The notes under the pieces were generated by a model. It worked only from the letters and a program-made list of their open reading frames with translations, was not told the DNA's origin and did no database searches. Positions 10,400-60,742 of a stretch of 64,000 bases of DNA are shown one piece after another. Positions within the stretch are counted from its first letter, which is position 1, and each line of letters opens with the position of its first letter. The stretch is from an uncultured Myxococcales bacterium (lineage in GTDB: Bacteria; Myxococcota_A; UBA9042; DTJE01): contig CAINDP010000007.1 in assembly GCA_903847405.1 (NCBI GenBank), positions 48,969 to 112,968 on the forward strand, given 5' to 3'. The translations under genes were made by a program, and so were the position numbers.

Positions 10400-10477
10400 G
10401 TGCACGTGGACGTGGACGTAGACGTCGACGTGGACGTGGACGTAGACGTGGACGTAGACGTGGACGTCGACGACTGC
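10400..10477. repeat. Imperfect hexanucleotide tandem repeat (GT[G/A/C][G/C]AC)x13, intergenic
   Basis: Read directly: gtgcac gtggac gtggac gtagac gtcgac gtggac gtggac gtagac gtggac gtagac gtggac gtcgac. It lies between the lipoprotein start (10323) and the metalloprotease stop (10541). A poly-C/G-rich tract precedes it (10378-10399, minus-strand GGGGAGGGAGGAAGGGGGG). Confidence 0.85.
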
Positions 10478-14893: not shown

Positions 14894-14963
14894 CGGAGTC
14901 CCTCCGTTCGCGAGGCCGAGGATCTGGTTCTCACGGTTCCTGTTCATCGCCATCACCTCCGCC

Positions 14964-20423: not shown

Positions 20424-20734
20424 TGCAACCTCCCACACCCTTGGACTGCAAGGCGGAAGCGGCCTGCTCCCTGCCTGAAAACCGACGTTATATACCTGCA
20501 AACACTCGGCAAGGGAAGCGGCAATTCGCGTCGCGGTGTCCGGTCTCTTCAATCGCAAGAATCGGGCCAATACCGGGGCCCCCGGGCGCCTTCCGGTGCA
20601 CCGAAAGCGGGGAGCGGGGGGCTTCCGGCCGGATTCGGTTGCGGCGTCACGATCCGGACGGCGTGCGGCCGCGGCTTTCCAAGACCGCGCCGGCGTGCTA
20701 TCAGATCAAGGTGTAAGCGCGGAGTTGCCCCACG

Positions 20735-30880: not shown

Positions 30881-31942
30881 ATGCGGTCGATCGGTCGCCT
30901 GGTGCTCGCGTTGCCGGCCCTGTGCCTGGTGACGGCCGTTTCCTGCAGCGCGGGCAGCGCCGCGACGGACCTGCCGGGGGACCTGCCGACGGATGTCCCG
31001 GCCGATGTTCCCGGGGACCTGGCTCCCGACGTGCCTCCCGACGTCCCGGTGACGCCCGACCTCCCGCCGGAGGCCACTGCGGACGTGCCGCTGGACGTGC
31101 CGGCCGACGTGGCGCCCGACGCACCCGAACCGGTCCTCCCGGAATTCCTGGGCGGCGATCGTCCGGCGGCCCTGTACGTCCCGGACGACTACGTCGCGTC
31201 GCGGCCCTGGCCTCTCATCGTCCTTCTTCACGGGTACAGCGCCTCGGGCCTGACGGAGGCGGCCTACCTGGGTCTTCCCGAGCGGAGGACGTCGAAGGGG
31301 TTCGTGCTGCTGACGCCCGACGGGATGGTCGACTCGGAAGGCTACCAGTTCTGGAACGCCTTCGATTCGTGCTGCAATTTCGACAACCTGAACGTGGACG
31401 ACGTGGGGTACCTGCGAAAGTTGATTGCCGAGGCGGCTAGCGTTCTGAACATCGATCCGGGCCGGGTGTACCTGCTGGGCCATTCGAACGGCGGGTTCAT
31501 GTCGTTCCGGATGGCCTGCGACGCCTCGGACCTGATCGTAGGCATCGCGTCGATGGCAGGCTCGATCTCCACCAAGGCGGGCGATGCCGAATGCACGCCG
31601 GCGAAACCCGTGTCGGTCCTGGTGATCCACGGGACGGTCGACGACAGCATCGCGTACGGCGGCGAAACGGGAAACCGGCCCTACCTGGGTGCCGAGGCGC
31701 TACTGCAGTGGTGGAAGAACACGGATGAATGCACCCAGGGGCCGACGACGGGGGCCTCCCTGGACGTCGTCGACGATCTGGCGGGTGCGGAAACCACGAC
31801 GACCGGCTTCTCCGGTTGTTCCGCAGGCGCCCGCGTGGACCTGTGGACCATGCAGGGCGGCGGCCACATCCCGGTCCTGACCGAGGCCTTCAAGGACGCC
31901 GTGCTGGACCACCTGCTGTCGATGAGGCGAACCGCACCGTGA
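30881..31942 (+). CDS. Secreted lipoprotein esterase (alpha/beta hydrolase, PHB-depolymerase-like) with an acidic DxP-repeat linker
   Basis: Signal peptide and lipobox MRSIGRLVLALPALCLVTAVSCS. Linker DLPGDLPTDVPADVPGDLAPDVPPDVPVTPDLPPE. Nucleophile elbow LLGHSNGGFM. Confidence 0.75.
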   Translation: MRSIGRLVLALPALCLVTAVSCSAGSAATDLPGDLPTDVPADVPGDLAPDVPPDVPVTPDLPPEATADVPLDVPADVAPDAPEPVLPEFLGGDRPAALYVPDDYVASRPWPLIVLLHGYSASGLTEAAYLGLPERRTSKGFVLLTPDGMVDSEGYQFWNAFDSCCNFDNLNVDDVGYLRKLIAEAASVLNIDPGRVYLLGHSNGGFMSFRMACDASDLIVGIASMAGSISTKAGDAECTPAKPVSVLVIHGTVDDSIAYGGETGNRPYLGAEALLQWWKNTDECTQGPTTGASLDVVDDLAGAETTTTGFSGCSAGARVDLWTMQGGGHIPVLTEAFKDAVLDHLLSMRRTAP

Positions 31943-31943
31943 T

Positions 31944-32027
31944 GAGCCGCCCGAGCACGCAGGCGCAGGCGATGGGATTGCGCAGCAATCTCTCGCCGGA
32001 GCCGGAGTCGACTCGGGCTATTCAATG
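31944..32027. repeat. Intergenic ~84-bp hairpin repeat element, copy A (REP/MITE-like family)
   Basis: gagccgCCCGAGcacgcaggcgcaggcgatgggattgcgcagcaatctctcgccggagccggagtcgaCTCGGGctattcaatg. The ends are inverted (CCCGAG...CTCGGG) with an internal stem GGATTGC/GCAATC. Confidence 0.85.
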
Positions 32028-32111
32028 GAGCCGCCCGAGCACGCAGGCGCAGGCGATGGGATTGCGCAGCAATCTCTCGCCGGAGCCGGAGTCGACTCGG
32101 GCTGTTCAATG
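32028..32111. repeat. Intergenic ~84-bp hairpin repeat element, copy B (tandem with A; 1 mismatch)
   Basis: Identical to copy A except one base (ctattcaatg vs ctgttcaatg). It ends 1 nt before the ATG of the downstream dioxygenase gene. Confidence 0.85.
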
Positions 32112-32112
32112 G

Positions 32113-33042
32113 ATGAACCGCCGCCGGTTCCTGCGACACGGGGTGGCGCTGCTGGGGGCGGCGGCCGGTGTGCCGCTGCTGGCCTGCTCCCGTCCCGCCG
32201 ACCGTCCGGCGAACCCTGCGCAAGGAGGCCCCGGGATGTCCGAACCGACTTCTGCATCCCCGGCCGCGCGCATGCCCGTCCTGTTCGTCGGGCACGGTTC
32301 GCCGATGAACGCCATCGCCGACAACCGGTTCAGCCGCGCCTTCCAGGCCCTGGGAAAGGCTGTGCCGCGCCCCCGGGCGATCCTGTCCGTTTCGGCGCAC
32401 TGGTTCGTCCCGGGGACGTTCCTGACCGACAACCTGCGCCCGCCGACGATCCACGACTTCGGCGGTTTCCCACAGTCTCTGTTCGACATGCAGTATCCCG
32501 CACCGGGGGACCCGGACCTGGCGCGGCGCGTGGTGGCACTGCTGGGAGCGGCGACCGCGTCGCTTCGCGGGGACTGGGGCCTGGACCATGGGACCTGGAC
32601 GGTGCTGCACCACGCCTTCCCCGGGGCCGACGTGCCGGTCGTCCAGTTGAGCATCGACTCCCGCCTGCCGCCTTCGGGTCACCTGCTGCTGGGCCAGGCC
32701 CTGGCGCCACTGCGCGACGAAGGCGTCCTGATCCTGGGCAGCGGAAACATCACGCACAACCTGGCCCATGTCTTCAGCCAGGGCTTCCGGGACGACGCGC
32801 CAACTCCCGACTGGGCGGACGCCTTCGACGCCGACGTGGCGCGGGCCTGCGAACGGCACGACGGCGCGCACCTGGCCCGGGCGATCGACCTGGAAGACGG
32901 ACGCATGTCCCATCCCACGCCGGACCACTACCTGCCACTGCTGTACGTGGCGGGTGCCGCCGCGCCGGGGGACGCCGTGACGTTCCCGATCACCGGGTTC
33001 GACCTGGGTTCCCTGTCGATGCGGGCCGTTCGTTTCGGTTGA
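32113..33042 (+). CDS. DODA-type extradiol ring-cleavage dioxygenase (YgiD family) with a Tat signal peptide
   Basis: MNRRRFLRHGVALLGAAAGVPLLA is a twin-arginine motif. The mature domain begins MPVLFVGHGSPMNA...SAHWF... (class III extradiol dioxygenase). Confidence 0.75.
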   Translation: MNRRRFLRHGVALLGAAAGVPLLACSRPADRPANPAQGGPGMSEPTSASPAARMPVLFVGHGSPMNAIADNRFSRAFQALGKAVPRPRAILSVSAHWFVPGTFLTDNLRPPTIHDFGGFPQSLFDMQYPAPGDPDLARRVVALLGAATASLRGDWGLDHGTWTVLHHAFPGADVPVVQLSIDSRLPPSGHLLLGQALAPLRDEGVLILGSGNITHNLAHVFSQGFRDDAPTPDWADAFDADVARACERHDGAHLARAIDLEDGRMSHPTPDHYLPLLYVAGAAAPGDAVTFPITGFDLGSLSMRAVRFG

Positions 33043-33051
33043 AGCCGGGGA

Positions 33052-33912
33052 TCACATCCAGGCAGACGCATGTTCCGCGGCGAACCGTTCGAAGCCCGCG
33101 GGCGGCCGGCCCAGGATGGCAGCCACGTCGGGGGACACCGGGGCGCAGAAACCGGCCCGGATCAAACGGTAGAACGTGATCAGCCGCTCGACCCACTCCG
33201 GCGGGAAGCCGGCAGCCCCCAGCGCGCCGCGCGCCTGGTCCTCGTCCAGCGGCAGGTAGCGAATCTCCCGCCCGGTCACGCCCGACAGCACCCTGGCGAT
33301 CTGGTGGTGGTCCAGCGCCTCGGGCCCGGTCAGCGTGTAGGCGCGGCCGGCATGCCCCGCGGTGGTCAGGGCCTGGGCCGCGACCGCGGAGATGTCCCGG
33401 GCGTCGATCCAGGAAATGCGCGCATCGGCCGCCGGAAGGCCGAACGTCCCGGTCGTGCGGATGCCGGCCTGCACCGTCCCGGAGGCCAGCATCTGCATGA
33501 ACCAGTTGGGGCGCAGGTGCGTGAACTCCATGCCCGATGCCTCCAGGTACAACTCGATCTTCCGCAGCGCGAAGTCCTCGCGCATCTCGGTCCCCATGGC
33601 GGTGAGGTTCACGACGTGCCGGACGCCCTGGGTCTTCATCGCGTCGATCAGGGGCAGGGCGACCCGGTCGGAATGCTGGTCCCCGGGGCGGGCGATCAGG
33701 AAGACGCGGTCCACGTCCGCCAGGGCAGGGCCGAAGGTCTCCGGTCGCTCCAGGTCGAACGGGACCCACTCCACCGTGTCCCCGGAACGGGACCGGGCCG
33801 CCTGGGGCGACCGCGTGGCTCCCCGCACGGCGCATCCCTTCCGGACCAGGGCCGACACCAGTTCCCCGCCGACCGTTCCCGTGGCGCCCAGGACCAGGAT
33901 TCGTGCCGTCAT
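33052..33912 (-). CDS. NmrA-like / atypical SDR NAD(P)H-binding protein
   Basis: MTARILVLGATGTVGGELV (GxxGxxG). The ATG at 33912 overlaps the TetR stop (ATGA). An alternative start is 33921. Confidence 0.75.
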   Translation of the reverse strand: MTARILVLGATGTVGGELVSALVRKGCAVRGATRSPQAARSRSGDTVEWVPFDLERPETFGPALADVDRVFLIARPGDQHSDRVALPLIDAMKTQGVRHVVNLTAMGTEMREDFALRKIELYLEASGMEFTHLRPNWFMQMLASGTVQAGIRTTGTFGLPAADARISWIDARDISAVAAQALTTAGHAGRAYTLTGPEALDHHQIARVLSGVTGREIRYLPLDEDQARGALGAAGFPPEWVERLITFYRLIRAGFCAPVSPDVAAILGRPPAGFERFAAEHASAWM

Positions 33913-34538
33913 GGTTCCCATTCCTCCTCGAAGAGGGCCTTCAGGCCGGCCAGGTGATACCGGGAGAATCCCGCCACCGCCTGGCGAATCCGGGACTCGT
34001 CGCCGTAGCGGACCAGGATGTCCACGATCGTGTCCACGAGGTGTCGATAGATCCGGGTCAGCGCGAACCGGGTCGTGGGGGGGACCTCCAGATCCGGCTG
34101 CAGCCCCTGGAAATGCGCGATGGCCCGGTCCGCCAGATCGCGCACCAGGGCGTCCGCGAATCCCTCGTGCCGCGTGCCCTGGGACCGCCCCAGCAGCACG
34201 ACGACGCGCAGTCGGTTGCGGATGCAGAACGCCAGCAATTCCTCGGACAGTGCGTGGAACGGCGCGTCCGCCGGCAGGGTGCGAATGTCGTCGACCCCGT
34301 CCAGGGACTGGACCCGACGGTGCAGCCGCAGACCCAGTTCCTCGACGAAAGCGTCGGGGATCACGGCCTGGTAGAGGTCCTTCTTGCCGCCGTGATACCG
34401 GTACAGGTTGCCGGAGGAAACCCCGGCCGCATCGGCGATGTCGGCCATCGACGACGCCCGGTAGCCGTTCCGGGCCAGGACCTTCAGCGCGCCGGCAGCG
34501 ATGCGGTCGCGGACCTCGTCCTTCTGGTACTGGGCCAC
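33909..34538 (-). CDS. TetR-family transcriptional regulator
   Basis: GTG at 34538 (VAQYQKDEVRDRIAAGALKVLARNGYRASSMADIADAAGVSSGNLYRYH, HTH). The ORF-track extension to 35267 was rejected. Confidence 0.75.
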   Translation of the reverse strand: MAQYQKDEVRDRIAAGALKVLARNGYRASSMADIADAAGVSSGNLYRYHGGKKDLYQAVIPDAFVEELGLRLHRRVQSLDGVDDIRTLPADAPFHALSEELLAFCIRNRLRVVVLLGRSQGTRHEGFADALVRDLADRAIAHFQGLQPDLEVPPTTRFALTRIYRHLVDTIVDILVRYGDESRIRQAVAGFSRYHLAGLKALFEEEWEP

Positions 34539-34782
34539 CCGACGCCTCAATAGCGAACCAATGATTCGCAAATACACCCCTGCCGTCCGGGTGTCAACGC
34601 CGGAGGCGCGAAAGCCTGTCAGAGGCGGTGTGCCGTGCGGGCCGGCACTTGTTTCGGCGGGACGAATCCGGTAGACGGTGGAGGGCCCCTGGGCGGCTTC
34701 GGCTCTGCCTGGGCGCTCGGCGAGGGCAGGGCCCGGAAAGGAGGACATCGTGGTTCGGACGGTGAATCGGTGCAACAACGCG

Positions 34783-36408
34783 ATGGGACGGGCGGCGGGA
34801 AGCCTGCTGCTGGCCCTCGTCCTGGCGTCCTGCAGCAAGGCGGGCCCGTCGGCGGAAATCCCGTGCTTCTGCGAGGACGACGTCCCCGTGGATTCCTGGA
34901 TGGAAACGGACGACGGTGCGAACCGGGACATCCCGCTCGCGGACGACGCTCCCTCCATGCCGGACGCCGCCCCCGACCTCCCGGGCGACACCCTCGACCC
35001 GGGCGCCCCGGACGACGGTCCGCCGCCGCCCCTGTGGGACGACCTGGTGGGGACCGGGGAGCCCGTCGGCAACATCGTCGGCGTGGCCAGCCACATGAAC
35101 ACTGCGGAAGGCGCGAACCCCCTGCGCGATTTCGAGTTCGACCAGTACGTCGACTTCCAGGGGTTCAAGATCCGGCGGGGCCTGCGGTGGAGCAATGTCC
35201 AGCCCGACCGGGACACCTGGCGGTTCGACAAGGTCACCGCGGCGGTCACGGGGGCCCAGGAGCACAACGTGCGCCTGCTGCCGCTGCTGGCCTACGGCAA
35301 CGACTGGGCCCAGGACGACCCGGACGCCTACGGGACGCTGCATGTCGCGGACTACGCCGCCTACGCCGGGCGCATGGCCACCGAGTTCTGCGCGACGATC
35401 AAGGACTATGAGCTGTGGAACGAGGAGAACATCACCCGCTTCTGGGACCTCCCCCCGGACCCCGCGATGTACGCCGACATGGTGATCGCGTCCGCGGTGG
35501 CCATCCGCGCCGCCTGCCCCGATGCCCGGGTGGTTTTTGGCGGCATGAGTTCCTACGACGACGTGGACCTGTTCAACACCTGGGGCTACCTGCGCCTGGC
35601 CCTGGCGGCGCGTCCGGAACTGTGCGCGTCCTTCGACGCCCTGGCCCTGCACCCGTACACGTGGTTCCAGTTCGATCCGCCCGAGCACGACGCGCAGGTG
35701 TCGTTCGACGTCACCAAGCCCAGCCAGACCCGCATGACGACCATCGCGCGGGAGATCCTGGCCGCCGCGGGATGCGCGCAGAAGCCGATCCTGTTCACGG
35801 AGGTCGGCTGGCCCAGCTACGAACTGTCCGAGGACAAGGTCGCGCAGTACGCGGCCCGCAGCCTGCTGCTGTCGGCCCGGGACGGCGTCGAGGGATGGTA
35901 CTGGTACACGTTCTGGGACGATGCGCCCGACGCGTCGGGAATCCGTCCGCACGAAAACTACTTCGGCCTGTGGGGCTGGCCGGGCGCGGACGATTCCGTG
36001 CGCCGACCCAAGCCGGCCTGGAACGCGGTGAAGACGGCGGGGATGCTGCTGCGCGGATACCGGTTCGCCCGGGATCTGGGCACCGCCCTGGGCCTGCCCA
36101 ACGACGTGTATGTCCTGGCCTTCGTGGACGACGCGGGCCGGATCGCACTGGCACTGTGGGACGGTCGGGAAACGCCCGACATCACGCTGGACGGGGACGA
36201 GGCCGGCGGGCCGGACACGACCTATGCCCTGGCCTTGCCGCTGCCGGCCTGCACGACCGCCACGCACCTGGTCGACATGAACGGCGAACCCCAGGCGGCG
36301 CTGCCGGCCGGCCCGACCGCGTCCCTGCTCCTGACTCCCCAGGTCCAGTACCTCACCGTCGACTGCGACCCGGCCCCGCCCGCCGCCCGCCGCCCCTCCG
36401 GGAAATGA
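34783..36408 (+). CDS. Lipoprotein glycoside hydrolase, clan GH-A (TIM barrel, cellulase-like)
   Basis: Signal and lipobox MGRAAGSLLLALVLASCS. Acidic Pro-rich linker. Acid/base motif YELWNEENI and nucleophile motif ILFTEVGWPS ~130 aa apart. Confidence 0.7.
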   Translation: MGRAAGSLLLALVLASCSKAGPSAEIPCFCEDDVPVDSWMETDDGANRDIPLADDAPSMPDAAPDLPGDTLDPGAPDDGPPPPLWDDLVGTGEPVGNIVGVASHMNTAEGANPLRDFEFDQYVDFQGFKIRRGLRWSNVQPDRDTWRFDKVTAAVTGAQEHNVRLLPLLAYGNDWAQDDPDAYGTLHVADYAAYAGRMATEFCATIKDYELWNEENITRFWDLPPDPAMYADMVIASAVAIRAACPDARVVFGGMSSYDDVDLFNTWGYLRLALAARPELCASFDALALHPYTWFQFDPPEHDAQVSFDVTKPSQTRMTTIAREILAAAGCAQKPILFTEVGWPSYELSEDKVAQYAARSLLLSARDGVEGWYWYTFWDDAPDASGIRPHENYFGLWGWPGADDSVRRPKPAWNAVKTAGMLLRGYRFARDLGTALGLPNDVYVLAFVDDAGRIALALWDGRETPDITLDGDEAGGPDTTYALALPLPACTTATHLVDMNGEPQAALPAGPTASLLLTPQVQYLTVDCDPAPPAARRPSGK

Positions 36409-36489
36409 TGTCCGGATGAAACTGGTCTGCCGGGGGTTGCAGTGGCATGATGCCCCTGGAACCGGACCACTCGTCACCGGGGAACGCCC

Positions 36490-37092
36490 ATGAGGTGCCC
36501 GTTCTGCGCGGAAGAAATCCAGGACGCGGCGATTCTGTGCCGGTTCTGCGGCGCCAGTCGGGCGGACGGCACCTGGAAACCGGCGGCGATGCGGAACTCG
36601 TTCGCCCTGCCGCCGAAACCCCTCGCCGGGGCCGGCACGCTGCGCTTGGCGGGCGTGTTCTTCCTGGTGTCCGCCGGCATCGAACTGTATTCGATGGGTT
36701 CGGGGGTCCCCCTGGCGGGGGCGGTTCGCGCCGGCTTCGTGGCGACCGCGTACCATTCGCTGTTCGCCGCGATCTACGTCGCGATGGCCGTCGCGCTGAT
36801 GGCGCTGCGCCCCTGGGGAGTCCCGGTGTTCCTGGGCGGCACCGCGCTGTACGTGGTGGATCGCCTGGCATACGTGCTGTCGGCGGCGACGATCCAGGCC
36901 TCGGTCGCCCAGGCAACGGACGAGTTGGCGGTGCTGGGATCCGGCCTGGAAGGCATGGACGAGCTGCTGGATGCCGGCACCCTGATCCAGTTTGAACGGA
37001 TGAAGACCGCTGCGGTCATCGCCTGCTGGCTGGGCTTCGCCCTCTACGTCTACCTCAAGCGCCCGCTCTTCCACGGTCCGGCCAGGGACTGA
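36490..37092 (+). CDS. Zinc-ribbon membrane protein (200 aa), hypothetical
   Basis: MRCPFCAEEI...CRFCG zinc ribbon followed by ~4 TM helices. Confidence 0.55.
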   Translation: MRCPFCAEEIQDAAILCRFCGASRADGTWKPAAMRNSFALPPKPLAGAGTLRLAGVFFLVSAGIELYSMGSGVPLAGAVRAGFVATAYHSLFAAIYVAMAVALMALRPWGVPVFLGGTALYVVDRLAYVLSAATIQASVAQATDELAVLGSGLEGMDELLDAGTLIQFERMKTAAVIACWLGFALYVYLKRPLFHGPARD

Positions 37093-37113
37093 GGTCGCCG
37101 CCGATCGCACCGC

Positions 37114-38118
37114 TCAAGGCGTCATCATCCGCGTCCAGTCCAGGGCCTTGCGCCACGTGCAGTTCGCGCACTGTGCCACGGGCAGGGCGTTGGGCCCCTC
37201 GGACCGGGGCCCGCCAGGACACGCGAACAGGATGCGGGCGGGCTTCCGGCTGGAGTCGAGGAGGAAGCCGGCCAGTTCCTCGGCGAACCGCGCCGGGTGC
37301 AGGAGGTGGGGGAAATGCCCCCCGCCCGGAAAGACCGACAGGGTCGCCCCGTGGAACCGCTGCAGCGCCATCCGGCCGTGGCTGACCGGGATCACGCGAT
37401 CGTCATCGCCCCAGAACAGCGCGACCTGCGGCAGGGACTCGGCCGCGGCGACCTCGCGACAGGTCTGCATGTACTGGCCGAACACGTCGATGACCCCGCG
37501 AACGGTCCGGGCGAAGGACATCCCGCTGCCCGGCAGGCTGTTCATCCGCACGATTTCCTCGATCTCCACGGGCTCCGGATTGCCGAAGTTGTGCAGATCG
37601 CCCTTCATGGCCATGCGGGTGCCGATCCCCATCGCCGCGGGCGTGTACAGCACCTCCAGGTACCGGATGGCGGCCAGGCGCAGGCCCAGCATGACCTCGC
37701 GACCCAGGCCGCCCGCGGCCACCAGCGCCATCCGATCCACCCGCGGACGGTGGGTCAGCACCATCCACTGGGCGATGCCGCCTCCGTAGGAATGTCCGCA
37801 GAAATGTGCCTGGGCCAGCCCGATGGCATCCATCCACTGGTCCAGGATGTCCGTGAACCAGCCCAGCGTGTACGGGGCGTCGGGACGTCCGGACTCGCCG
37901 AACCCCGGCAGATCGGGAATCAGGACGCGGAACCGCCGGGCCAGAAGGGGGGCGGTGCGCCGCCAGGTGCGGCCCGAGTCGCCGATTCCGTGCAACAGGA
38001 TCAGGGGCTCGCCCGAACCCGTTTCGGCCCACGCGACCTCGGTTCCGTCCACGGTCGTCCGGTGGCGGGTGCCCAGGGGCGGGAGGCCGATCCTGCCGAC
38101 GTCGCCGGTCCCTTGCAT
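37114..38118 (-). CDS. Alpha/beta-fold hydrolase
   Basis: ATG at 38118 (MQGTGDVGRIG...). HGIGDSG, nucleophile elbow GHSYGGGIA, C-terminal His. The ORF-track extension to 38217 runs through repeat copy C and was rejected. Confidence 0.8.
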   Translation of the reverse strand: MQGTGDVGRIGLPPLGTRHRTTVDGTEVAWAETGSGEPLILLHGIGDSGRTWRRTAPLLARRFRVLIPDLPGFGESGRPDAPYTLGWFTDILDQWMDAIGLAQAHFCGHSYGGGIAQWMVLTHRPRVDRMALVAAGGLGREVMLGLRLAAIRYLEVLYTPAAMGIGTRMAMKGDLHNFGNPEPVEIEEIVRMNSLPGSGMSFARTVRGVIDVFGQYMQTCREVAAAESLPQVALFWGDDDRVIPVSHGRMALQRFHGATLSVFPGGGHFPHLLHPARFAEELAGFLLDSSRKPARILFACPGGPRSEGPNALPVAQCANCTWRKALDWTRMMTP

Positions 38119-38134
38119 GGACTCACCTGCCGAT

Positions 38135-38218
38135 GTTCCTCCCGAGCGCGCAGGCGCAGGCGATGGGTTTCCGCAGGAAACTCTCGCCGAAGACGAAGTC
38201 GCCTCGGGCCTTTCCACT
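38135..38218. repeat. Intergenic ~84-bp hairpin repeat element, copy C (variant subfamily)
   Basis: ctCCCGAGcgcgcaggcgcaggcgatgggtttccgcaggaaactctcgccgaagacgaagtcgcCTCGGGcctttccactg. The inner stem is GGTTTCC/GGAAAC, i.e. compensatory double substitutions relative to copies A/B/D. Confidence 0.85.
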
Positions 38219-38309
38219 GATCCGAAATGTGGGCCTTTCCCTTACCGGAGGCAAGGCGACGCGGAGCACAGCGAGAATGGATGGGCGCGGGCGATGTCGG
38301 TGGGCCGGA

Positions 38310-39356
38310 TCACTTCACGAGGGGTACGCGGACGATGGGACCGGGGCGGACGATGAGGTGGTCGAGGCCCGCGAAGGTCTCGCCGTCGATGACGGGGTCC
38401 AGGACCTCGCCGTCCCGCGCGCGGACCTCCAGGGACTCGCCCGGGAACTCGTGCCACGTGCCGCCGGGGATCGGCCGGCCCGCGACCAGCCAGATCCACT
38501 TCCAGGAGGCCTCGCTGGGGGTCAGTGCACCCGCGACCAGGTGCAGCTTGCCCGGGAGGCCCGCGAACGGGAACAGCTTCATCGTGCCGAAGTCGACGTC
38601 CACGGAGCCGACGTGCAGGCCCTGGTAGGATTCGTACGGCAGGACCTTTCCGTCCGCCACGACGTGTGCGCGGGTGCCGGACATCATGTCCCGGCTGTGG
38701 TCCTTCCACCGTTCCATCCAGGGGAAGCCGTGATACGGAACGAAGGACATCAGGTGCCCGGTCCCCACCTTGACCGCGATCTGGATGATGGTCCAGGGGT
38801 TCGGGTTTGCGGCCTCGTAGTATTTTTCGAAGAACTTCTGCCCGATGCCGCCGACGGCGGTGGCGAATCCCAGGCGGCGGAAGCCCATCGAGCCTTCCGG
38901 ATCCCCCACCCGGTGGCCGACGACCTCCAGCGTGGGCAGGTCGGCGGTCGTGAAGGCGCGGCCGGACCGGACCCCGTCCACGAGGATGCGGATGATCCGG
39001 CTGGAACTGCTGCGGATCCCGGCCTTGCGGGCGACGAAGTCGATGGTGCCGCCGTTGGCCGGAACCAGGAAGTAGGGGAACGGGGAACGGCGATCCCAGA
39101 CTCCGCGATCCTCGAGGACCGAGGCGCCCTCGTTGACCAGGCAGTTCAACGTTCCGTCGCCGCCGTCGGCGACCCAGTACCTGCAGCCGGCATCGATGAA
39201 TTCCTCCACCACGCCGCGGATTTCGCCCAGGCTGCCGGTGGCCCGCACCAGGACGTCCCCGCCCAGCGCCGCACTCAGTCGCTGGACGCGGCCGGTGCCT
39301 GCGCGGTTCCGTCGGGACTTCAGGTTGGTGATGATCCCGATGCTTGCCGCCACCAT
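38310..39356 (-). CDS. Diacylglycerol-kinase-catalytic-domain (DAGK_cat/YegS-like) lipid kinase family protein
   Basis: 348 aa with ...WVADGGDGTLNCLVN... (GGDGT motif). Confidence 0.7.
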   Translation of the reverse strand: MVAASIGIITNLKSRRNRAGTGRVQRLSAALGGDVLVRATGSLGEIRGVVEEFIDAGCRYWVADGGDGTLNCLVNEGASVLEDRGVWDRRSPFPYFLVPANGGTIDFVARKAGIRSSSSRIIRILVDGVRSGRAFTTADLPTLEVVGHRVGDPEGSMGFRRLGFATAVGGIGQKFFEKYYEAANPNPWTIIQIAVKVGTGHLMSFVPYHGFPWMERWKDHSRDMMSGTRAHVVADGKVLPYESYQGLHVGSVDVDFGTMKLFPFAGLPGKLHLVAGALTPSEASWKWIWLVAGRPIPGGTWHEFPGESLEVRARDGEVLDPVIDGETFAGLDHLIVRPGPIVRVPLVK

Positions 39357-39450
39357 GGCTCCTTCCGGTCGCCGCGATTTATCGCAGAGGGGTGGTCCGG
39401 ACGCAAGCCTGAACTGTGCGGAGAGTGCTGCCCGGCGGCACCGGGGCCCG

Positions 39451-39759
39451 TCAGTGATTCACGCGGTCGCTCCCGGCGGGGACGAAATCATTCCACCACA
39501 CGATCGCCGCCGCCTGGTCCTCCAGGCGCTGGATCTCCGAAACGTTCATGGACAGCAGGATGGCCACCTCCTGCCGGGTGCGGGCCACCGACGTGCCGAT
39601 CGCATACCGCAGTCGCAGCACCGCCTCCTGCCGGGGGGACAGCAGGGCCAGCCGGGACCGGAGGGCGTCGTCCACCGGCTGCCCCAGGGGGCCCGTGAAG
39701 GGGCGGGGATCCAGGCTCAGCGGACCCCGGTGCGTATCGTGGAGCGTGACATGCGCCAT
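39451..39759 (-). CDS. Stand-alone sigma-70 region-4-like HTH protein (102 aa)
   Basis: LSPRQEAVLRLRYAIG...TRQEVAILLSMNVSEIQRLEDQA resembles sigma-70 region 4 / LuxR-type HTH. There are no region-2 motifs. Confidence 0.5.
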   Translation of the reverse strand: MAHVTLHDTHRGPLSLDPRPFTGPLGQPVDDALRSRLALLSPRQEAVLRLRYAIGTSVARTRQEVAILLSMNVSEIQRLEDQAAAIVWWNDFVPAGSDRVNH

Positions 39760-40105
39760 TTCACCGTCTCCAGAAGATGTGCAAGGATCGAACGCTACCC
39801 CGGCGACCGTACGGCAGGAATCAGTGCCATTCCCGGTTGTTGCGTAAGGGATACCCCTAGCGGCCGCCCGTGGTCGGCGCCAGCACGCTGAGATTCCTGT
39901 TCATGCAGGATCCTCCCACGCGAAATCACCAGGGATTCGGGCATGGACGGCGCGCCTGTCAACCGGCGGACAATTGCCCGGAAACACAGGGCGAACGTGC
40001 CCCTGGGATGGCGGGACGGCATCCCGGGCGGCCGGGGTTCGTCCGCGCCGGGATCGGCGTTGCATCCGTCACCGGGAATCTCGTAGGATCCCCCCCGACG
40101 AGGGA

Positions 40106-42004
40106 ATGATGCAGACCATGCCCGGGGAAGGGACGCAGGGGACAGGCCGCGCCGGGCGGGACGTTGCGCCTTACGCCGGCGCGATCGCCTTCGCGTTGAT
40201 CCTGTGCGTCTACGCGGCGCTGTTTCCGGTGCCCCGTGGGGACCGCGTGGGGGGCGACGGGTTCTACACCTGGATTTTCGCCCGATCGCTGGCCCTGGAC
40301 GGGGACCTCGACCTGGCGAACGACTACGGGACCTGCGGGGATCCCTGGCGGCAGGGGGGCGACGAGGGCGGCGGGCGTCCGGCGAATCCCTTCTACCTGG
40401 GCCCGGCCCTCCTGTGGGCGCCGCTGCTGGCCATCGTCAAGACGGTGCAACCGCTTCCTCCCGACGCGTCGCCCCGGTGGAAGGACGCCTGCGCGGGGCC
40501 CTGGGCGGACACCACGCTGGCGTTGACGCCGCTGATCGCCGCCTTGACCGCCCTGATGGGCTTCCTGCTGGCGCGGCGCTTCTGCGGTCCCTGGACGTCG
40601 GCTGCCGCGATGCTGGTCGTCGGCCTGGGCTCGGCGCTGATGCACTGGGGCGCGATGGTCGTCCAGTACTCCCACGCCTACGCGGCCTTCGGAGTGGCGG
40701 TGGGCGTCCTGGCGTGGGTGCGGGCTGCGGAGGTTCCGGCCTCCCGGTGGCGCTGGTTGCTGGCCGGGGTCGGGATCGGGTTCGCGGCGCTGATGCGCAG
40801 CCAGGCGATGGTCCTGCTGCTGGCCCCCGCCATCACGCTGGGGATCCGCCTGGTCGCCGATCTGCGGGCGCGGCGGAACCCCGTGCCGTGCATCGTGGCC
40901 GGCGGCCTGGTCCTGGCCGGGTTCGCGTCCCTGTTCTGGATCCAGGTCGCGGCCAACGTGGCCCTCTATGGCAAACCCTTCGTCATCCCCCAGGGGGCGA
41001 CGTACCTGCAACTGGCCCACGCCCACCCGTTCCTGACGCTGTTCGCCGCGCGCAACGGGCTGCTGACCTGGCACCCGCTGTTGTGGCTGGGCTTCATCGG
41101 GATCGGGATCATGATCGCCCGGCGTTCCAGCCGCGCACTGGGGATTGCCCTGTGGGTGCCCCTCGCGATCGACCTGTACGTCAACTCGGCGGCCCTCGAC
41201 TGGCACGGGGCCGCATCGTTCGGGGCGCGCAGGCTGGTGAGCCTGTCGGCGCCGCTGGTCGCCACGACCGCCCTGTGCCTGGGGGTTCTGTGGCGCTGGC
41301 TTTCGGCGACCCGGTTGCGGCTGGGGCTGTTTGCCGCCGCGGGATGGCTGCTGCCCTGGTTCGTGATCGGCGTGGGCATGTCCATCGGGGACATCCAGGG
41401 GGACATCCCGAACGACAAGGCGGTCCCGATGGCCGATCTGTACCCGGCCGGCCTGAAGAAGGCCCTGCAGGTCACCCATCGCGCCGTCGGGAACCCCGCG
41501 GCCTGGCCCGCGTCGCTGCCGTTCGCGGTCCGTTACGGCGTGGCACCGGGGCGCTTCGACTTCTTCACCGGTGGCGGGATGTTCCGTCATACCTACCGGC
41601 CGGTGAAACTGGCGGGAGCGAACACGATCGATTTCAAGGCCCGCGAGGTGGATGACCTCCTGGTCGAGGGCCTGGAACGGCAGCCCGCAGGCGTGCGGCT
41701 GCAGGAAGGCGTTCGCGGCCGCTTCCTGGTGGAACTGGAGTGGCCCTTCGTGACGCACGTGTCCGTCACCGCGAAGCCGTCCTGCGGCCGGACCGTCGCC
41801 CTGACGATCGTCGTCGGCCAGTTCACGTGCCGCACCGACGTGGGCGTCCTGGGGTTTCCCGCGGAGGGGGCGTCGGTCGAAATCGCGGTTCCCGAGGGGG
41901 CCTTCGACTCGGGCGTCAACGAGGTTGTTCTGGAAGCCGACGGGGATCTGGTCCTGGAATCCTGGACGTGGGTCGATCGGGGAGTGCACGACACCAGTTT
42001 GTGA
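40106..42004 (+). CDS. Polytopic membrane protein, GT-C-fold glycosyltransferase-like (ArnT/PMT-like), 632 aa
   Basis: ATG-ATG at 40106. ~11 TM helices. N-terminal loop motif GDGFYTWIFARSLALDGDLDLANDY. C-terminal ~200-aa soluble domain. Confidence 0.6.
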   Translation: MMQTMPGEGTQGTGRAGRDVAPYAGAIAFALILCVYAALFPVPRGDRVGGDGFYTWIFARSLALDGDLDLANDYGTCGDPWRQGGDEGGGRPANPFYLGPALLWAPLLAIVKTVQPLPPDASPRWKDACAGPWADTTLALTPLIAALTALMGFLLARRFCGPWTSAAAMLVVGLGSALMHWGAMVVQYSHAYAAFGVAVGVLAWVRAAEVPASRWRWLLAGVGIGFAALMRSQAMVLLLAPAITLGIRLVADLRARRNPVPCIVAGGLVLAGFASLFWIQVAANVALYGKPFVIPQGATYLQLAHAHPFLTLFAARNGLLTWHPLLWLGFIGIGIMIARRSSRALGIALWVPLAIDLYVNSAALDWHGAASFGARRLVSLSAPLVATTALCLGVLWRWLSATRLRLGLFAAAGWLLPWFVIGVGMSIGDIQGDIPNDKAVPMADLYPAGLKKALQVTHRAVGNPAAWPASLPFAVRYGVAPGRFDFFTGGGMFRHTYRPVKLAGANTIDFKAREVDDLLVEGLERQPAGVRLQEGVRGRFLVELEWPFVTHVSVTAKPSCGRTVALTIVVGQFTCRTDVGVLGFPAEGASVEIAVPEGAFDSGVNEVVLEADGDLVLESWTWVDRGVHDTSL

Positions 42005-42015
42005 GGAGCCGCGAC

Positions 42016-42507
42016 CTACAGGTACCGCTTCAGCAGCTTCTTGCCCTGGGGGTCCAGGGCGCGGGTATCCAGCACGCGATACCGGACCCCTTCGGCGTCG
42101 GAAATCAGCACGCCGTTCAATCCCAGGCGCCGCACGTGGTCCTCGCTGGTCAGCACGAAGCGGACCTCGCCGCGATCCGTTTCCACGTGCCACGCGGTGG
42201 GCTCGGACCCCTGCGAGATGTCCAGGATGCGGCGGATGGTCGGCACGAACTCGCGGCGGGACAGTTCCTGCTCCAGCAGGCTCCGCACGCCCGGATCCAG
42301 GTCGGCCAGGTCGGTGATGCAGGCCACCTCGTGGCCCTGCGGGTCGCACAGCGAAACGCGCTGCGTGGGCGAGGTGAACGGGAAGCAGCGCACGGGGACC
42401 ACGTTCACCACGGGCGCGGCGCCCGGCAGTGCCATGACCATGCGGCCGAAGGCATCGACGTGCAGCGCCAGAGCGGCGGCGTCACCAGAGGTCAGGTCCG
42501 TGGTCAC
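42016..42507 (-). CDS. Small conserved protein, DUF1854-like (163 aa), coupled to the ABC exporter
   Basis: The GTG at 42507 overlaps the ABC exporter stop (GTGA). Proteins of this type usually neighbour ABC exporters. Confidence 0.55.
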   Translation of the reverse strand: MTTDLTSGDAAALALHVDAFGRMVMALPGAAPVVNVVPVRCFPFTSPTQRVSLCDPQGHEVACITDLADLDPGVRSLLEQELSRREFVPTIRRILDISQGSEPTAWHVETDRGEVRFVLTSEDHVRRLGLNGVLISDAEGVRYRVLDTRALDPQGKKLLKRYL

Positions 42508-44858
42508 GGCGACTCCTTCCGCGACGGTTCGGCGCGCAACAGGGCCTGGGGCGGCAACGGCTCGACCGGAGCGCCCTCGCCGGGGTGCTCCATTTCATGG
42601 CGCGACTGCGCCTCGTACAGGCTGCGGTACAGCCCGTCGGCGGCGATCAACTGCTCGTGGCTGCCCGTTTCGACGATGCGTCCGCCGTCCAGCACGACGA
42701 TTCTATCCGCGTTGCGCAGGGTGCTCAGGCGGTGCGCGATGGCCAGCGTGGTGCGGCCGCGGACCAGGTTGTCCAGGGCTTCCTGGATCTGGATTTCGGT
42801 CTGCGTGTCCACCGACGACGTCGCCTCGTCCAGGATCAGCAGGCGCGGGTCGATCAGCAGCGCCCGGGCGATGCTGATGCGCTGGCGCTCGCCGCCCGAC
42901 AGGGTCTGGCCGCGCTCCCCGACGATGCTGTCATAGCCGTCGGGCAACTGCAGGATGAACTCGTGGGCCCGGGCGGCACGGGCGGCGGCGATGATCTCGT
43001 CGTGCGACGCCGCGGGCCGGCCGTAGGCGATGTTTTCGGCGATGGTCCCGTAGAACAGGAACGGGTCCTGCAGCACGATGCCGATGTTGCGGCGGTACTC
43101 CAGCGTCGGGAACGACCGGATGTCCTTGCCGTCCACCAGGATCGAGCCGTCCGTCACGTCGTAGAACCGGCAGATCAGGTTCAACAGCGTGGTCTTGCCG
43201 GCGCCGGTGGGCCCCACGACGCCGACCATCTCGCCGGGGCGGATCGTGATGCTGACGTCGTCCAGGATGCGGCGGTTGCCGAAGCGGAAGCCCACGTTCC
43301 GCAGTTCGACCTCGCCCTTCAAGCGTCCCGGGGAAACGGGGTTCGCCGGCTCGGCGACGCTGGGCGCCCGGTCCAGGACCTCGAAGATGCGCTGGGCGCT
43401 GGCGGCCGCACGCTGGGTGCTGCCCGCCATGCGGGTCATCGATTCCAGGCGGCCGTAGAACCGCGCGATGTACGCCAGGAACGCGGTCAGCACGCCGACG
43501 GTGATCACCTGGTCGAACACGCGCCAGGCGCCGAAGGCCCAGGCGACCACCAGTCCCATCTGGTTCAGCATGGCGACCATGGGCCAGAAGAACGTCCAGA
43601 CGCGGTTGACGCGGTCGTTCGCGGCCACGATGCGGTCGTTGGAGGCCTTGAACCGTTCGACCTCGCGCCGTTCCTGGGCGAAGGCCTTCACGACGCGGAC
43701 GCCGGGAATGGTGTCGGACAGGATCGAGGTCATTTCGTCCCAGGCGCGGTAGCCCCGGGCGAAGCCCTCGGACAGCCGGGTCCGGGTGGTATACGTCAGC
43801 CAGGCGACGCCCGGGAAGGTGCACAGCGTCGCCGCGGCCAGCAACGGATCCATGTAGAACAGCATGGCCGCGATGCCGACGATCATCAGGGCGTCGGCCG
43901 TGAAGTCCGTCAGGGTATCGGAAAGGAAGTAGCAGATGCGGTCCGAGTCGGTGCTGATGCGCGTCACCAGATCGCCCGTGCGCTTGGCGCTGAAGTAGTC
44001 CAGGGACAGGGAATGCACGTGGGCGTACGTCGTGTTGCGCAGGTCCGCGCTGATGCGCTCGGACAGGCGGGCCAGCACCCAGCCCTGTCCCCATCCGAGG
44101 CCCCAGGCCGCCAGGCCGGACCCGATCATTCCCAGGAGGTACCACGGCACCATCGCGAAGGGTTCGTGCGCCTTCTCCCGCAGGGATTCCAGGCGGGCCT
44201 CCCTGGCCACTTCGCCGATCGTCGGGTCGTCGCGGGCGATTTTCACCTGCTCCTGGTAGGGGGCGAAGATGTCGTCCACCAGGGGCCACGTCAGCAGCGG
44301 CGGGATCAGTCCCGCCGCGGTCGAGGTCAGGGTCAGGCACAGGCCCAGGGCCAGCCACGCCAGGTGGGGGCGCGCGAAGCGCAGCAGCCGGAACAGGGTG
44401 CCGACGCGCGGGGGTTCCTCGGGCTGGACCGTTTCCGGGACCTCCAGGTCGGCCTCCTGGCCGGCCGTCGCCGAAGGGACCTGTCGCTCCGCCCGGAGGC
44501 CGGCGAACACGTCGAGGACCGATGCGACCCCCTTCGCCCGGCCGAGGGTGTAGTGCCAGCGACCCAGGAGGCCGTCGGCTCCCAGGGCTTCCAGCGTGCC
44601 CAGGCCGCCGCGATCCGTTGCCGTCAGGCCGGTGACGGCCTCCAGGGGCCAGGCGCGGAAACCGGTGCGCGCGGCCAGGTCGTCCATCGCGATCAGGCGG
44701 CGCTCGGTGAGCGCGACGATGCCCTCGCGGAAGGCCCGGGACGGGTCCAGATCCAGACGGAAGGAGGCCAGGATCCGCTCGCCCGGATCGAGGTGCGGGG
44801 CGAGGATCGCAAGCGAGGGATGGAGGGCGTTGTTGCGACGTTCGGTGCTGTCGTTCAA
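42504..44858 (-). CDS. ABC exporter (fused 6-TM permease + ATPase, MsbA type) with an N-terminal bacterial PH-like domain
   Basis: Walker A GPTGAGKTT, signature LSGGERQR, Walker B LILDEATSSVD. TM domain with an ABC-exporter fold. N-terminal GERILASFRLDL...GIVALTERRLIA (bPH-like). The start is uncertain (TTG at 44858, or ATG at 44687). The ORF-track extension to 45191 crosses repeat copy D and was rejected. Confidence 0.75.
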   Translation of the reverse strand: MNDSTERRNNALHPSLAILAPHLDPGERILASFRLDLDPSRAFREGIVALTERRLIAMDDLAARTGFRAWPLEAVTGLTATDRGGLGTLEALGADGLLGRWHYTLGRAKGVASVLDVFAGLRAERQVPSATAGQEADLEVPETVQPEEPPRVGTLFRLLRFARPHLAWLALGLCLTLTSTAAGLIPPLLTWPLVDDIFAPYQEQVKIARDDPTIGEVAREARLESLREKAHEPFAMVPWYLLGMIGSGLAAWGLGWGQGWVLARLSERISADLRNTTYAHVHSLSLDYFSAKRTGDLVTRISTDSDRICYFLSDTLTDFTADALMIVGIAAMLFYMDPLLAAATLCTFPGVAWLTYTTRTRLSEGFARGYRAWDEMTSILSDTIPGVRVVKAFAQERREVERFKASNDRIVAANDRVNRVWTFFWPMVAMLNQMGLVVAWAFGAWRVFDQVITVGVLTAFLAYIARFYGRLESMTRMAGSTQRAAASAQRIFEVLDRAPSVAEPANPVSPGRLKGEVELRNVGFRFGNRRILDDVSITIRPGEMVGVVGPTGAGKTTLLNLICRFYDVTDGSILVDGKDIRSFPTLEYRRNIGIVLQDPFLFYGTIAENIAYGRPAASHDEIIAAARAARAHEFILQLPDGYDSIVGERGQTLSGGERQRISIARALLIDPRLLILDEATSSVDTQTEIQIQEALDNLVRGRTTLAIAHRLSTLRNADRIVVLDGGRIVETGSHEQLIAADGLYRSLYEAQSRHEMEHPGEGAPVEPLPPQALLRAEPSRKESP

Positions 44859-44935
44859 GGGGGCCCCACTGCAGCCGCGCCGCAGTTTACTTCCACCGGG
44901 GCCGTGAGTAAAATGCCGCCCGCGGCCGTCCGACG

Positions 44936-45019
44936 GAGCCGCCCGAGCACGCAGGCGCAGGCGAGCGGATTGCGCAGCAATCTCTCGCCGAAGACGAAGT
45001 CGCCTCGGGCCTTTCCACT
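44936..45019. repeat. Intergenic ~84-bp hairpin repeat element, copy D (in the divergent promoter region)
   Basis: gagccgCCCGAGcacgcaggcgcaggcgagcggattgcgcagcaatctctcgccgaagacgaagtcgcCTCGGGcctttccactg. The 5' half resembles copies A/B and the 3' half resembles copy C. Confidence 0.85.
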
Positions 45020-45111
45020 GGACGCGTACCGGGGCGTTCCGGCGTTGGCGCGATGTCCCAGGGGGCTGGGCGCGGCGCCGGGGTTCAGATCCCTTCATGT
45101 CGAAGGAAACC

Positions 45112-47760: not shown

Positions 47761-47811
47761 GCGTGTCGCGTGTGTTCGACGCCGATCGTGGCTGGACAGG
47801 GAAAGCCCCCG

Positions 47812-50433: not shown

Positions 50434-50538
50434 CGCGTTCCGTTCCGCCCGCATGATTCCCCGCATCTCACGTTGACGCCGCACCCCGCAAGCGTTTCAA
50501 TGCCCCGGTACGAATTGGATGTGTTGCCGGGAGGCCCC

Positions 50539-60583: not shown

Positions 60584-60742
60584 CCTGGTCGCCGACCTTC
60601 GCCGCATCTTCCGATGTCGCTGGTGGAATCGGTGCTTTGGGCGCGACCGTGTGGACAATCCCCCGGTGCAGAAGGAAGATTCGGCCTGTCGGACCCGGAT
60701 TGTCCTGGTGGTCGGGCGGGAGCCGCCCGGGAGATGAGCGTC

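Follow-up and report, generated by a model that had tools for sequence, protein, structure and literature searches.

Copies in the window and their predicted fold

A 64,000-nucleotide (nt) stretch of DNA from an uncultured Myxococcales bacterium (hereafter 'the window'; GenBank assembly GCA_903847405.1, contig CAINDP010000007.1, positions 48,969 to 112,968) carries four copies of a short hairpin-forming repeat element within sequence of 69.3% G+C. Copy A (31944-32027, plus strand) is an 84-nt unit composed of a 6-nt leader (GAGCCG), a 68-nt hairpin core (31950-32017) and a 10-nt tail (CTATTCAATG). Copy B (32028-32111, plus strand; core 32034-32101) is a direct tandem duplicate of copy A, placed head-to-tail with a period of 84 nt and differing at one base (99% identity). 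Copies C (38135-38218, plus strand; core 38141-38208) and D (44936-45019, plus strand; core 44942-45009) are 80% and 87% identical to copy A, respectively. An earlier note, made from the letters of this DNA, had reported these four copies in a single orientation, with A and B as tandem duplicates one base apart, and this description is borne out by alignment, by matches to the 23-nt 5' box CCCGAGCRCGCAGGCGCAGGCGA (four in the window at up to 3 mismatches, versus 0.00 expected in shuffles) and by a covariance model. The model, built from 21 copies and run on the window with filters off, retrieved A through D only, at 95-102 bits (102.3, 95, 97.3 and 98.9 bits in that order), and the next, unrelated match scored no more than 17 bits. 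All four copies are bounded by the hexamers CCCGAG and CTCGGG, as first described. The stem-loop GGATTGC-GCA-GCAATC ascribed to every copy is present in A, B and D, but copy C carries GGTTTCC-GCA-GGAAAC instead, with two compensatory changes. Thus both apical variants (GGATTGC and GGTTTCC) occur in the window, and each is found again in other genomes.

Copies A and B occupy the whole spacer between a putative esterase gene (30881-31942, plus strand; Pfam PF00756; the same gene is called in a second assembly), which ends just before A, and the gene for a LigB-type extradiol (4,5-DOPA) dioxygenase (32113-33042, plus strand; Pfam PF02900) with the twin-arginine N-terminus MNRRRFL. Core A begins 8 nt past the esterase stop codon (31940-31942). 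Copy B ends at 32111, so that a single nucleotide separates it from the dioxygenase ATG (32113), as had been noticed earlier, and core B ends 11 nt before that ATG. Copy C is antisense to both of its flanking genes, an alpha/beta hydrolase gene (37114-38118, minus strand; the same 334-amino-acid model in the second assembly) whose ATG lies on the opposite strand 23 nt from the start of core C, and a gene of unknown function (38310-39356, minus strand; G+C at third codon positions, GC3, of 0.89; without a Pfam match) whose stop codon lies ~100 nt past the core. Copy D resides in the divergent spacer between an ABC transporter gene (minus strand) and the cyanophycin synthetase gene cphA (45097-47760, plus strand; Pfam PF18921, Mur ligase and ATP-grasp domains), 88 nt upstream of the cphA ATG.

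Across the family, units are 81-85 nt long and are built around a strongly conserved 68-nt core that runs from CCCGAG to CTCGGG. The core is preceded by a leader of ~6 nt that depends on the subfamily (GAGCCG, GTTCCT, TTCTCC, TCCCGG or CATCCA) and is followed by a tail of 7-10 nt with the consensus (C/T)ATCCA. As single-stranded DNA (ssDNA) or RNA, it is predicted to form a single long imperfect hairpin. The outer stem, CCCGAG(CAC)/(GU-C-G)-CUCGGG, comprises seven pairs plus three more across two bulges on the 3' side, and leads to a conserved, purine-rich internal loop in which GCAGGCGCA faces GRAGMCGRA. Above this loop are an inner stem (GGCGA/UCGCC), a one-base bulge and an apical stem of 7-8 pairs closed by a 3-nt loop, such that the consensus of the inner arm reads GGCGA-N-GGNUUNC/GNAANCU-UCGCC. 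The apical triplet is freely variable (GCA, GAA, ACA, AAG, AGG or ACC). A helical form of the internal loop, with alternating C-G and G.A pairs, was considered and rejected because columns 56, 59 and 62 vary without compensation.

Conservation of this fold was assessed with a structure alignment of 21 copies from the window, one Myxococcales metagenome-assembled genome (MAG) and lake metagenomes, the metagenome copies having been fetched with a pattern that fixes the 5' box and most of the 3' loop and leaves both stems free. Standard pairs fill 96.7% of the paired cells, and sliding the 3' partners by 1-3 columns lowers this to 31-47%. The alignment has a covariation score of 0.159 versus a shuffled mean of 0.056, and none of 500 shuffles reached the observed value. 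Changes on both sides are seen at five pairs: 6-75 (GC, CG, UA, AU and GU), 11-70 (AU to GC), 14-65 (AU, GU and GC), 34-46 (AU and UA in 10 and 11 copies) and 37-43 (GC and CG in 11 and 10 copies). The secondary structure is thus conserved beyond chance, which the earlier note had named as a test of its proposal. Predicted hairpin stabilities range from -33 to -44 kcal/mol, with the RNA fold of copy A at -43.9 kcal/mol (z = -4.1). The top strand is more stable than its complement in 21/21 copies with RNA parameters and in 19/21 with DNA parameters, by ~3 kcal/mol on average, and for the four window copies the better-folding strand is also the G-rich strand (GC skew +0.037). Searches of Rfam with the whole window at gathering thresholds, and with 31900-32150 at E-values up to 10, yielded one tRNA and chance-level matches only.

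Dispersal, filled and empty sites and copies within genes

The element is dispersed, as the earlier note had expected of a repeat family. In the MAG CAIOFV01 (uncultured Myxococcales bacterium MJ-time_bin-5834), BLAST confirmed true copies at at least three unrelated loci among the matches listed, and one of these loci is a tandem pair with a period of 85 nt. A scan of a genome collection with the pattern CGCAGGCGCAGGCGA-N16-28-TCGCCG was loose, and the matches listed fell mostly by chance in unrelated high-GC genomes. A stricter pattern that leaves the stems free identified nine JGI metagenome contigs. Tandem arrays on contigs L115 (two units) and L122 (three units) both have a period of 81 nt; overall, arrays comprise 1-3 units in direct tandem with periods of 81-85 nt. 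Protein searches with the six-frame translation of the element revealed more copies in ENA assemblies, on L124/L125 and L127. These peptide searches gave few matches, and the Arg-rich frames probably crowded the candidate list. Contig L125 is named for BUCK21 lake-metagenome samples, and the carriers are a lineage of freshwater Myxococcota. No match to the element was detected in a plasmid collection or among viral contigs, and the searchable literature yielded no description of a repetitive extragenic palindrome (REP) or miniature inverted-repeat transposable element (MITE) of this kind in Myxococcota. An 87-bp repeat of Myxococcus xanthus has reportedly been described (Fujitani et al. 1991) and does not enter the comparisons made here.

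Presence and absence of units at orthologous sites show directly that the element is mobile. Contigs L039 and L119 align collinearly with 72-82% identity, and the start of the argininosuccinate synthase gene argG is empty in L119 (ATGCCTGAG followed directly by CCGATCGTC) and filled in L039, where an exact 81-nt insert after codon 3 consists of CCCATCCA, the core and GACAT. The insert supplies 27 codons without a stop, the GGAGG ribosome-binding site and the ATG remain upstream, and the gene stays open. It reaches 8 nt beyond CCCGAG and 5 nt beyond CTCGGG, and its ends are not inverted repeats. The second case concerns glycerol-3-phosphate dehydrogenase (GlpD), for which protein P0121 (575 amino acids) contains a 28-amino-acid (84-nt) insert, SIERPEATPAPARDCCAIRSPAPACSGG, that is the element read antisense. 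This insert is missing from P0125 (547 amino acids, 94% identical to P0121) and from five further GlpD orthologues, and the empty glpD site in the P0125 contig reads GGGCGAGGG followed by CTCCCGGAGGAC. Both empty sites (two only) read GAG^CC in the orientation of the element, with the glpD junction inferred from the protein sequence. At the A/B locus itself, the second assembly has the same genes at the same spacing, except that the interval between the esterase and dioxygenase genes is 84 nt, or one unit, shorter; either the number of units truly varies or short reads were collapsed in assembly.

Insertion leaves no detectable target-site duplication. Flanks share a 4-mer at 9/14 loci versus 58% of mismatched-pair controls, and a 5-mer at 2/14 loci versus 22%. 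The short flank repeats GAT, GATGA, GACG and CC were therefore rejected as candidate duplications, as the controls share k-mers equally often, and the filled and empty pair from L039 and L119 permits an ambiguous CC at most.

Traces of decay and rearrangement are also found. An intact unit on L127 is immediately followed, at 928-977, by one that has lost its central hairpin (CCCGAGCGCGCAGGCGC joined to GTGCCGAAGCCGACTCGGG), and a 21-nt partial duplicate of the 3' end of the element occurs on L118. The copies at L055:2833-2909, L114:1554-1631 and L118 (minus strand) 461-546 share flanks on one side only, the shared flank containing a porin gene if it lies upstream and an outer-membrane efflux gene if it lies downstream, and the breakpoints coincide with the ends of the element. 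This pattern suggests recombination between dispersed copies.

The four window copies are intergenic by gene calls. However, the earlier statement that all copies are intergenic does not extend to the family as a rule, because copies elsewhere are read in frame within proteins. The argG copy in L039 is read in sense frame 2 and the glpD copy in antisense frame 1, and most in-frame copies use this antisense frame (R1), which encodes a linker-like peptide rich in Pro, Ala and Ser (PEATPAPAR..SPAPACSGG). For example, an open reading frame (ORF) of 985 amino acids on L117 (8736-11693, minus strand) joins type I dehydroquinase, shikimate dehydrogenase and EPSP synthase, with the element located before the EPSP synthase part; it may be a true multi-domain Aro protein, or the stop-free element may have fused two genes. 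A second element on L119 forms the last ~28 residues of ArgG, ending in PSPAPACPGKKEAR and the stop codon. Protein P0122, which is small, Cys/His-rich and secreted, contains a diverged antisense copy, and P0249, a DsbD-like membrane protein, contains half a copy. An AlphaFold model of P0121 is poor (mean predicted local distance difference test, pLDDT, of 58.6) and places the insert as a coil (pLDDT <50) between two helices, an arrangement that is only suggestive of an insert tolerated in folded GlpD.

Other translated copies appear to be annotation artefacts. The public dioxygenase model P0001 (338 amino acids; NCBI/JGI/ENA) begins at an ATG that overlaps the esterase stop codon, 29 codons ahead of the twin-arginine start. 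Its additional N-terminus, MSRPSTQAQAMGLRSNLSPEPESTRAVQW, corresponds to one element unit in sense frame 2 ahead of MNRRRF, and its start is probably mis-called. The warning that these repeats are easily misannotated as coding sequence is thus realised at the A/B locus. A peroxiredoxin, P0124, likewise has an Arg/Leu-rich extension derived from the element.

These in-frame copies raise the possibility that the unit of selection is a repeated coding module, namely a 27-28-amino-acid peptide cassette whose intergenic copies have become pseudogenes. Units of 81 and 84 nt are divisible by three, the core is free of stop codons in all six frames in every copy, and several proteins carry it in frame. 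However, the frames and strands differ among hosts: argG and P0001 read it in sense frame 2, and GlpD in antisense frame 1. In addition, the units of one array repeat every 85 nt, and most copies are intergenic. G+C at third codon positions is ~68% in the repeat frame compared with 81-94% in flanking genes. Furthermore, compensatory changes in the stem keep the hairpin intact and alter the peptide from DCCAIR to VSFGNP. This explanation is largely refuted, and we assign it a negligible chance of being correct.

Alternative roles, known repeat families and mobilisation

Among ~18 independent loci, approximately nine copies are in sense and approximately six are antisense to the local gene, the latter including copy C and the copies in GlpD, P0122, L117 and L119. 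In all, ~40% of copies either run antisense to the local gene or are situated within coding sequence. These proportions bear on the proposal that the element is a REP-type hairpin serving the host, which stabilises the upstream mRNA, terminates or insulates transcription, or binds a nucleoid protein, and which would have spread by recombination or duplication instead of through a transposase of its own. Such a role is compatible with mobility, and it would suit the very stable hairpin, its conserved structure and the copies found just past a stop codon between co-directional genes (A/B, L102, L115, L116 and L127b). Yet a role at mRNA ends makes no sense for the antisense and intragenic copies, and clean insertions of single units at new sites also count against it. 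A scan of 31500-45500 for promoter and terminator consensus sequences found nothing within the elements; its six terminator-like sites match the shuffled level and none falls in an element, contrary to the earlier suggestion of terminator hairpins. We consider a host-serving function quite unlikely to explain the family.

A cis-regulatory leader RNA for the next gene (a riboswitch, thermometer or protein-binding RNA, with tandem copies acting cooperatively) was also considered. The conserved unpaired nucleotides beside the covarying stems favour this explanation, and copies B, L114/L118 and L116 stop 6-25 nt short of a start codon on their own strand. There is also a weak promoter-like site just upstream of copy D. 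This site, TTTACT-17-TAAAAT at 44886-44914, lies ~20 nt upstream of D and is the sole sigma-70-like match in 31500-45500, at a frequency expected by chance; it would put copy D at the start of the cphA leader. However, no common function was found among the downstream genes, which encode a LigB dioxygenase, CphA, an outer-membrane efflux protein (TolC type), a DUF4838 protein and a GH114 protein. Antisense and intragenic copies are not expected of a leader, the tandem copies are recent duplicates (99% identical) whose number differs between assemblies of the A/B locus, there is no Rfam match, and the conservation of the loop is partly imposed by the search pattern. A leader RNA is therefore largely refuted and very improbable.

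We compared the element with several classes of known repeats. REPs and REPINs, which are mobilised by RAYT (TnpA-REP) tyrosine transposases (PMC3337134, PMC3733652, PMC8266576), resemble it in being imperfect palindromes with conserved mismatches or bulges that lie near gene ends, form stable hairpins as single strands, show no target-site duplication and occasionally fall within genes; intragenic REPs are on record (PMC3733652), and the ~70-nt hairpin of the element is of REPIN-like size. However, a REP unit is 20-40 nt long and carries an unpaired tag, GTAG or CGTC, at one of its ends (PMC3733652), whereas the core here is 68 nt and neither tag nor its complement occurs at the foot of the hairpin in the 21-copy alignment. 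Nor are the arms two copies of a single 20-40-nt REP, since the conserved internal loop is asymmetric (12/14 nt). Arrays of the element are direct tandems rather than the inverted pairs of REPINs and BIMEs, the sole inverted pair being 600 bp apart on L127, and no RAYT (Y1 HUH) gene, which in such systems typically has the repeats on its flanks, is recognised by Pfam in the window. REPs reach high copy numbers, mostly outside genes; the window has 4 copies in 64 kb.

Bacterial MITEs such as Correia/NEMIS, ERIC, RUP and BOX (reviewed in PMC10969869) are likewise short, non-coding and structured, show insertion polymorphism, can fuse in frame with ORFs and occur near promoters or start codons. 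The element differs in having a subterminal inverted repeat (CCCGAG/CTCGGG), an L039 insert whose true ends are not inverted repeats, and no detectable target-site duplication. IS200/IS605-family derivatives, which are palindrome-associated transposable elements that move by single-strand transposition (PMC6006769), are similar in anatomy: asymmetric ends surround a subterminal hairpin, target-site duplication is missing and one strand folds better. That both empty sites read GAG^CC may be a further likeness, from two sites only. In contrast to such elements, no TnpA was found in the window and L127 carries both orientations close together.

By behaviour, the element is classed here as an analogue of the Rickettsia palindromic elements (RPEs) rather than as one of them; RPEs are found both between genes and in frame in housekeeping genes (Ogata et al. 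2000, 2002, summarised in PMC10969869). Both are small palindromic repeats that enter unrelated housekeeping genes and add a short peptide with the frame kept open, here GlpD, both ends of ArgG, AroE-AroA and a DsbD-like protein. The hosts differ, a free-living Myxococcota with a large genome of 69% GC as opposed to an intracellular alphaproteobacterium with a reduced, AT-rich genome, as do the units (81-85 nt versus roughly 100-150 bp), and most copies of the present element are intergenic, with coding insertions in the minority. Since it fails the testable features of REPs and the terminal-repeat and target-duplication features of MITEs, we do not assign the element to any named family. It constitutes a new repeat family of a known kind of element and not a new kind of system.

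Taken together, these findings support a family of small, non-autonomous mobile palindromic repeats that is REP/MITE-like and behaves like RPEs, a reading to which we assign a probability of roughly 0.8. The mobile REP/MITE-like character proposed in the earlier note gains direct backing from the filled and empty orthologous sites. Several observations weigh against it. No gene in the 64-kb window has a transposase domain in Pfam, with the other loci not systematically searched. Precise deletion, rather than the ancestral state, could in principle account for the empty sites, and the unit difference at A/B could be an artefact of short-read assembly. In the metagenome copies, the 5' and 3' boxes are invariant in part because the search pattern required it. 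The family also looks small in public data, with nine JGI contigs by the strict pattern and, in a profile search of 1.84 billion protein cluster representatives, 8 matches of which ~4 are true and about half low-complexity noise. Finally, L127 carries both orientations within 700 bp, which runs counter to strand-specific, replication-coupled insertion; its opposite-orientation copy lies 600 bp from the others, at the start of a GGDEF gene.

If the element is indeed a mobile repeat, the hairpin and the invariant 5' box CGCAGGCGCAGGCGA may serve as a recognition structure for an enzyme supplied in trans. The comparisons show that units come and go at precise sites, multiply locally into direct tandem arrays and decay by internal deletion and truncation, with rearrangement breakpoints coinciding with units. 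They persist where harm is least, namely beside start and stop codons, in spacers and in frame within genes. On this reading the window copies are intergenic passengers, and if they influence the neighbouring dioxygenase, hydrolase or cphA genes, through a structured 5' leader or an antisense structure, this would be a side effect.

The leading candidate for the mobilising enzyme is a hairpin-recognising single-strand HUH/Y1 enzyme of the RAYT or IS200/IS605-like type (such systems are described in PMC6006769 and PMC8266576), because the true ends lack terminal inverted repeats and there is no detectable target-site duplication. The same absence of inverted repeats at the insert ends, together with flank k-mers at control level, argues against a DDE-type MITE. 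Three weak pointers agree with an HUH/Y1 enzyme, namely the GAG^CC empty sites, the better-folding top strand and its placement on the G-rich strand. The two orientations close together on L127 and the lack of a transposase among the window genes count against it. We offer this attribution tentatively, as possible rather than probable.

A bolder proposal, which we regard as unlikely, is that the family represents a second, independent set of 'protein-coding palindromes', outside Rickettsia, in free-living, large-genome Myxococcota, selected for survival inside genes, remodelling proteins and moved as ssDNA by an HUH enzyme. The idea of shaping for survival within genes derives from the 81/84-nt units, the core that is stop-free in six frames and the antisense frame that reads as a Pro/Ala/Ser linker. 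Remodelling might be exemplified by the linker of the AroE-AroA fusion and by new N- and C-terminal tails.

Recognition of the family has practical consequences, since the element has already been translated into database proteins as the 29-amino-acid false N-terminus of P0001, the peroxiredoxin extension and spurious small ORFs. A family model would let annotators of Myxococcota MAGs mask the element and place start codons correctly. Tandem copies that are 99% identical are also a plausible cause of collapsed or broken contigs. Insertion of palindromes in frame is best known from Rickettsia, and the present family provides a compact, well-bounded case of a hairpin repeat entering housekeeping enzymes in a free-living bacterium. 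Lake time-series metagenomes contain both filled and empty sites, which could be used to follow the movement of the element and to find its transposase.

Neighbouring genes and further repeats

The nearest named homologues of the window dioxygenase, at 66-72% identity, are from Polyangia, Byssovorax, Archangium and Pyxidicoccus, which places the host in Myxococcota, in agreement with the title of the MAG. Exact protein look-ups of the dioxygenase starting at ATG 32113 and of CphA returned no record, and the recorded dioxygenase model starts farther upstream. Comparison of the A/B spacer with orthologous sites in the distant relatives represented by P0002 and P0009 was abandoned because their dioxygenase genes lie in other gene neighbourhoods.

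Downstream of copy D, adjacent cyanophycin-synthetase paralogues (45097-47760 and 47761-50433) share ~70% identical DNA stretches, which appear as repeat families D2, D5 and D7 with a spacing of ~2670 nt. A gene for a CstA carbon-starvation transporter (50434-52443) directly follows this pair.

Other repeats are present in the window. A hexamer microsatellite, (GTSGAC) x 12 (GTGCAC GTGGAC GTGGAC GTAGAC GTCGAC...), occupies 10400-10472 in the intergenic region between an OmpA-family gene and a large Met-zincin gene. The homologue P0009 of the dioxygenase, from another assembly, has a false N-terminus, MHVYVYVHVHVYVYVHV, that resembles the translated hexamer repeat, and the microsatellite may represent a second family of dispersed simple repeats in these genomes. 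Two huge adjacent ORFs on the minus strand (10541-14971 and 14964-20705; 1476 and 1913 amino acids) have G+C contents at first codon positions (GC1) of 0.56-0.58, unusually low for the genome, and a short Met-zincin (DUF4953) motif is their sole Pfam signal. Lastly, three 166-nt direct repeats at 61320-62052, which are 71-78% identical and ~283 nt apart, lie within a peptidoglycan-binding/TPR gene (60584-62137) and are probably ordinary intragenic domain repeats.

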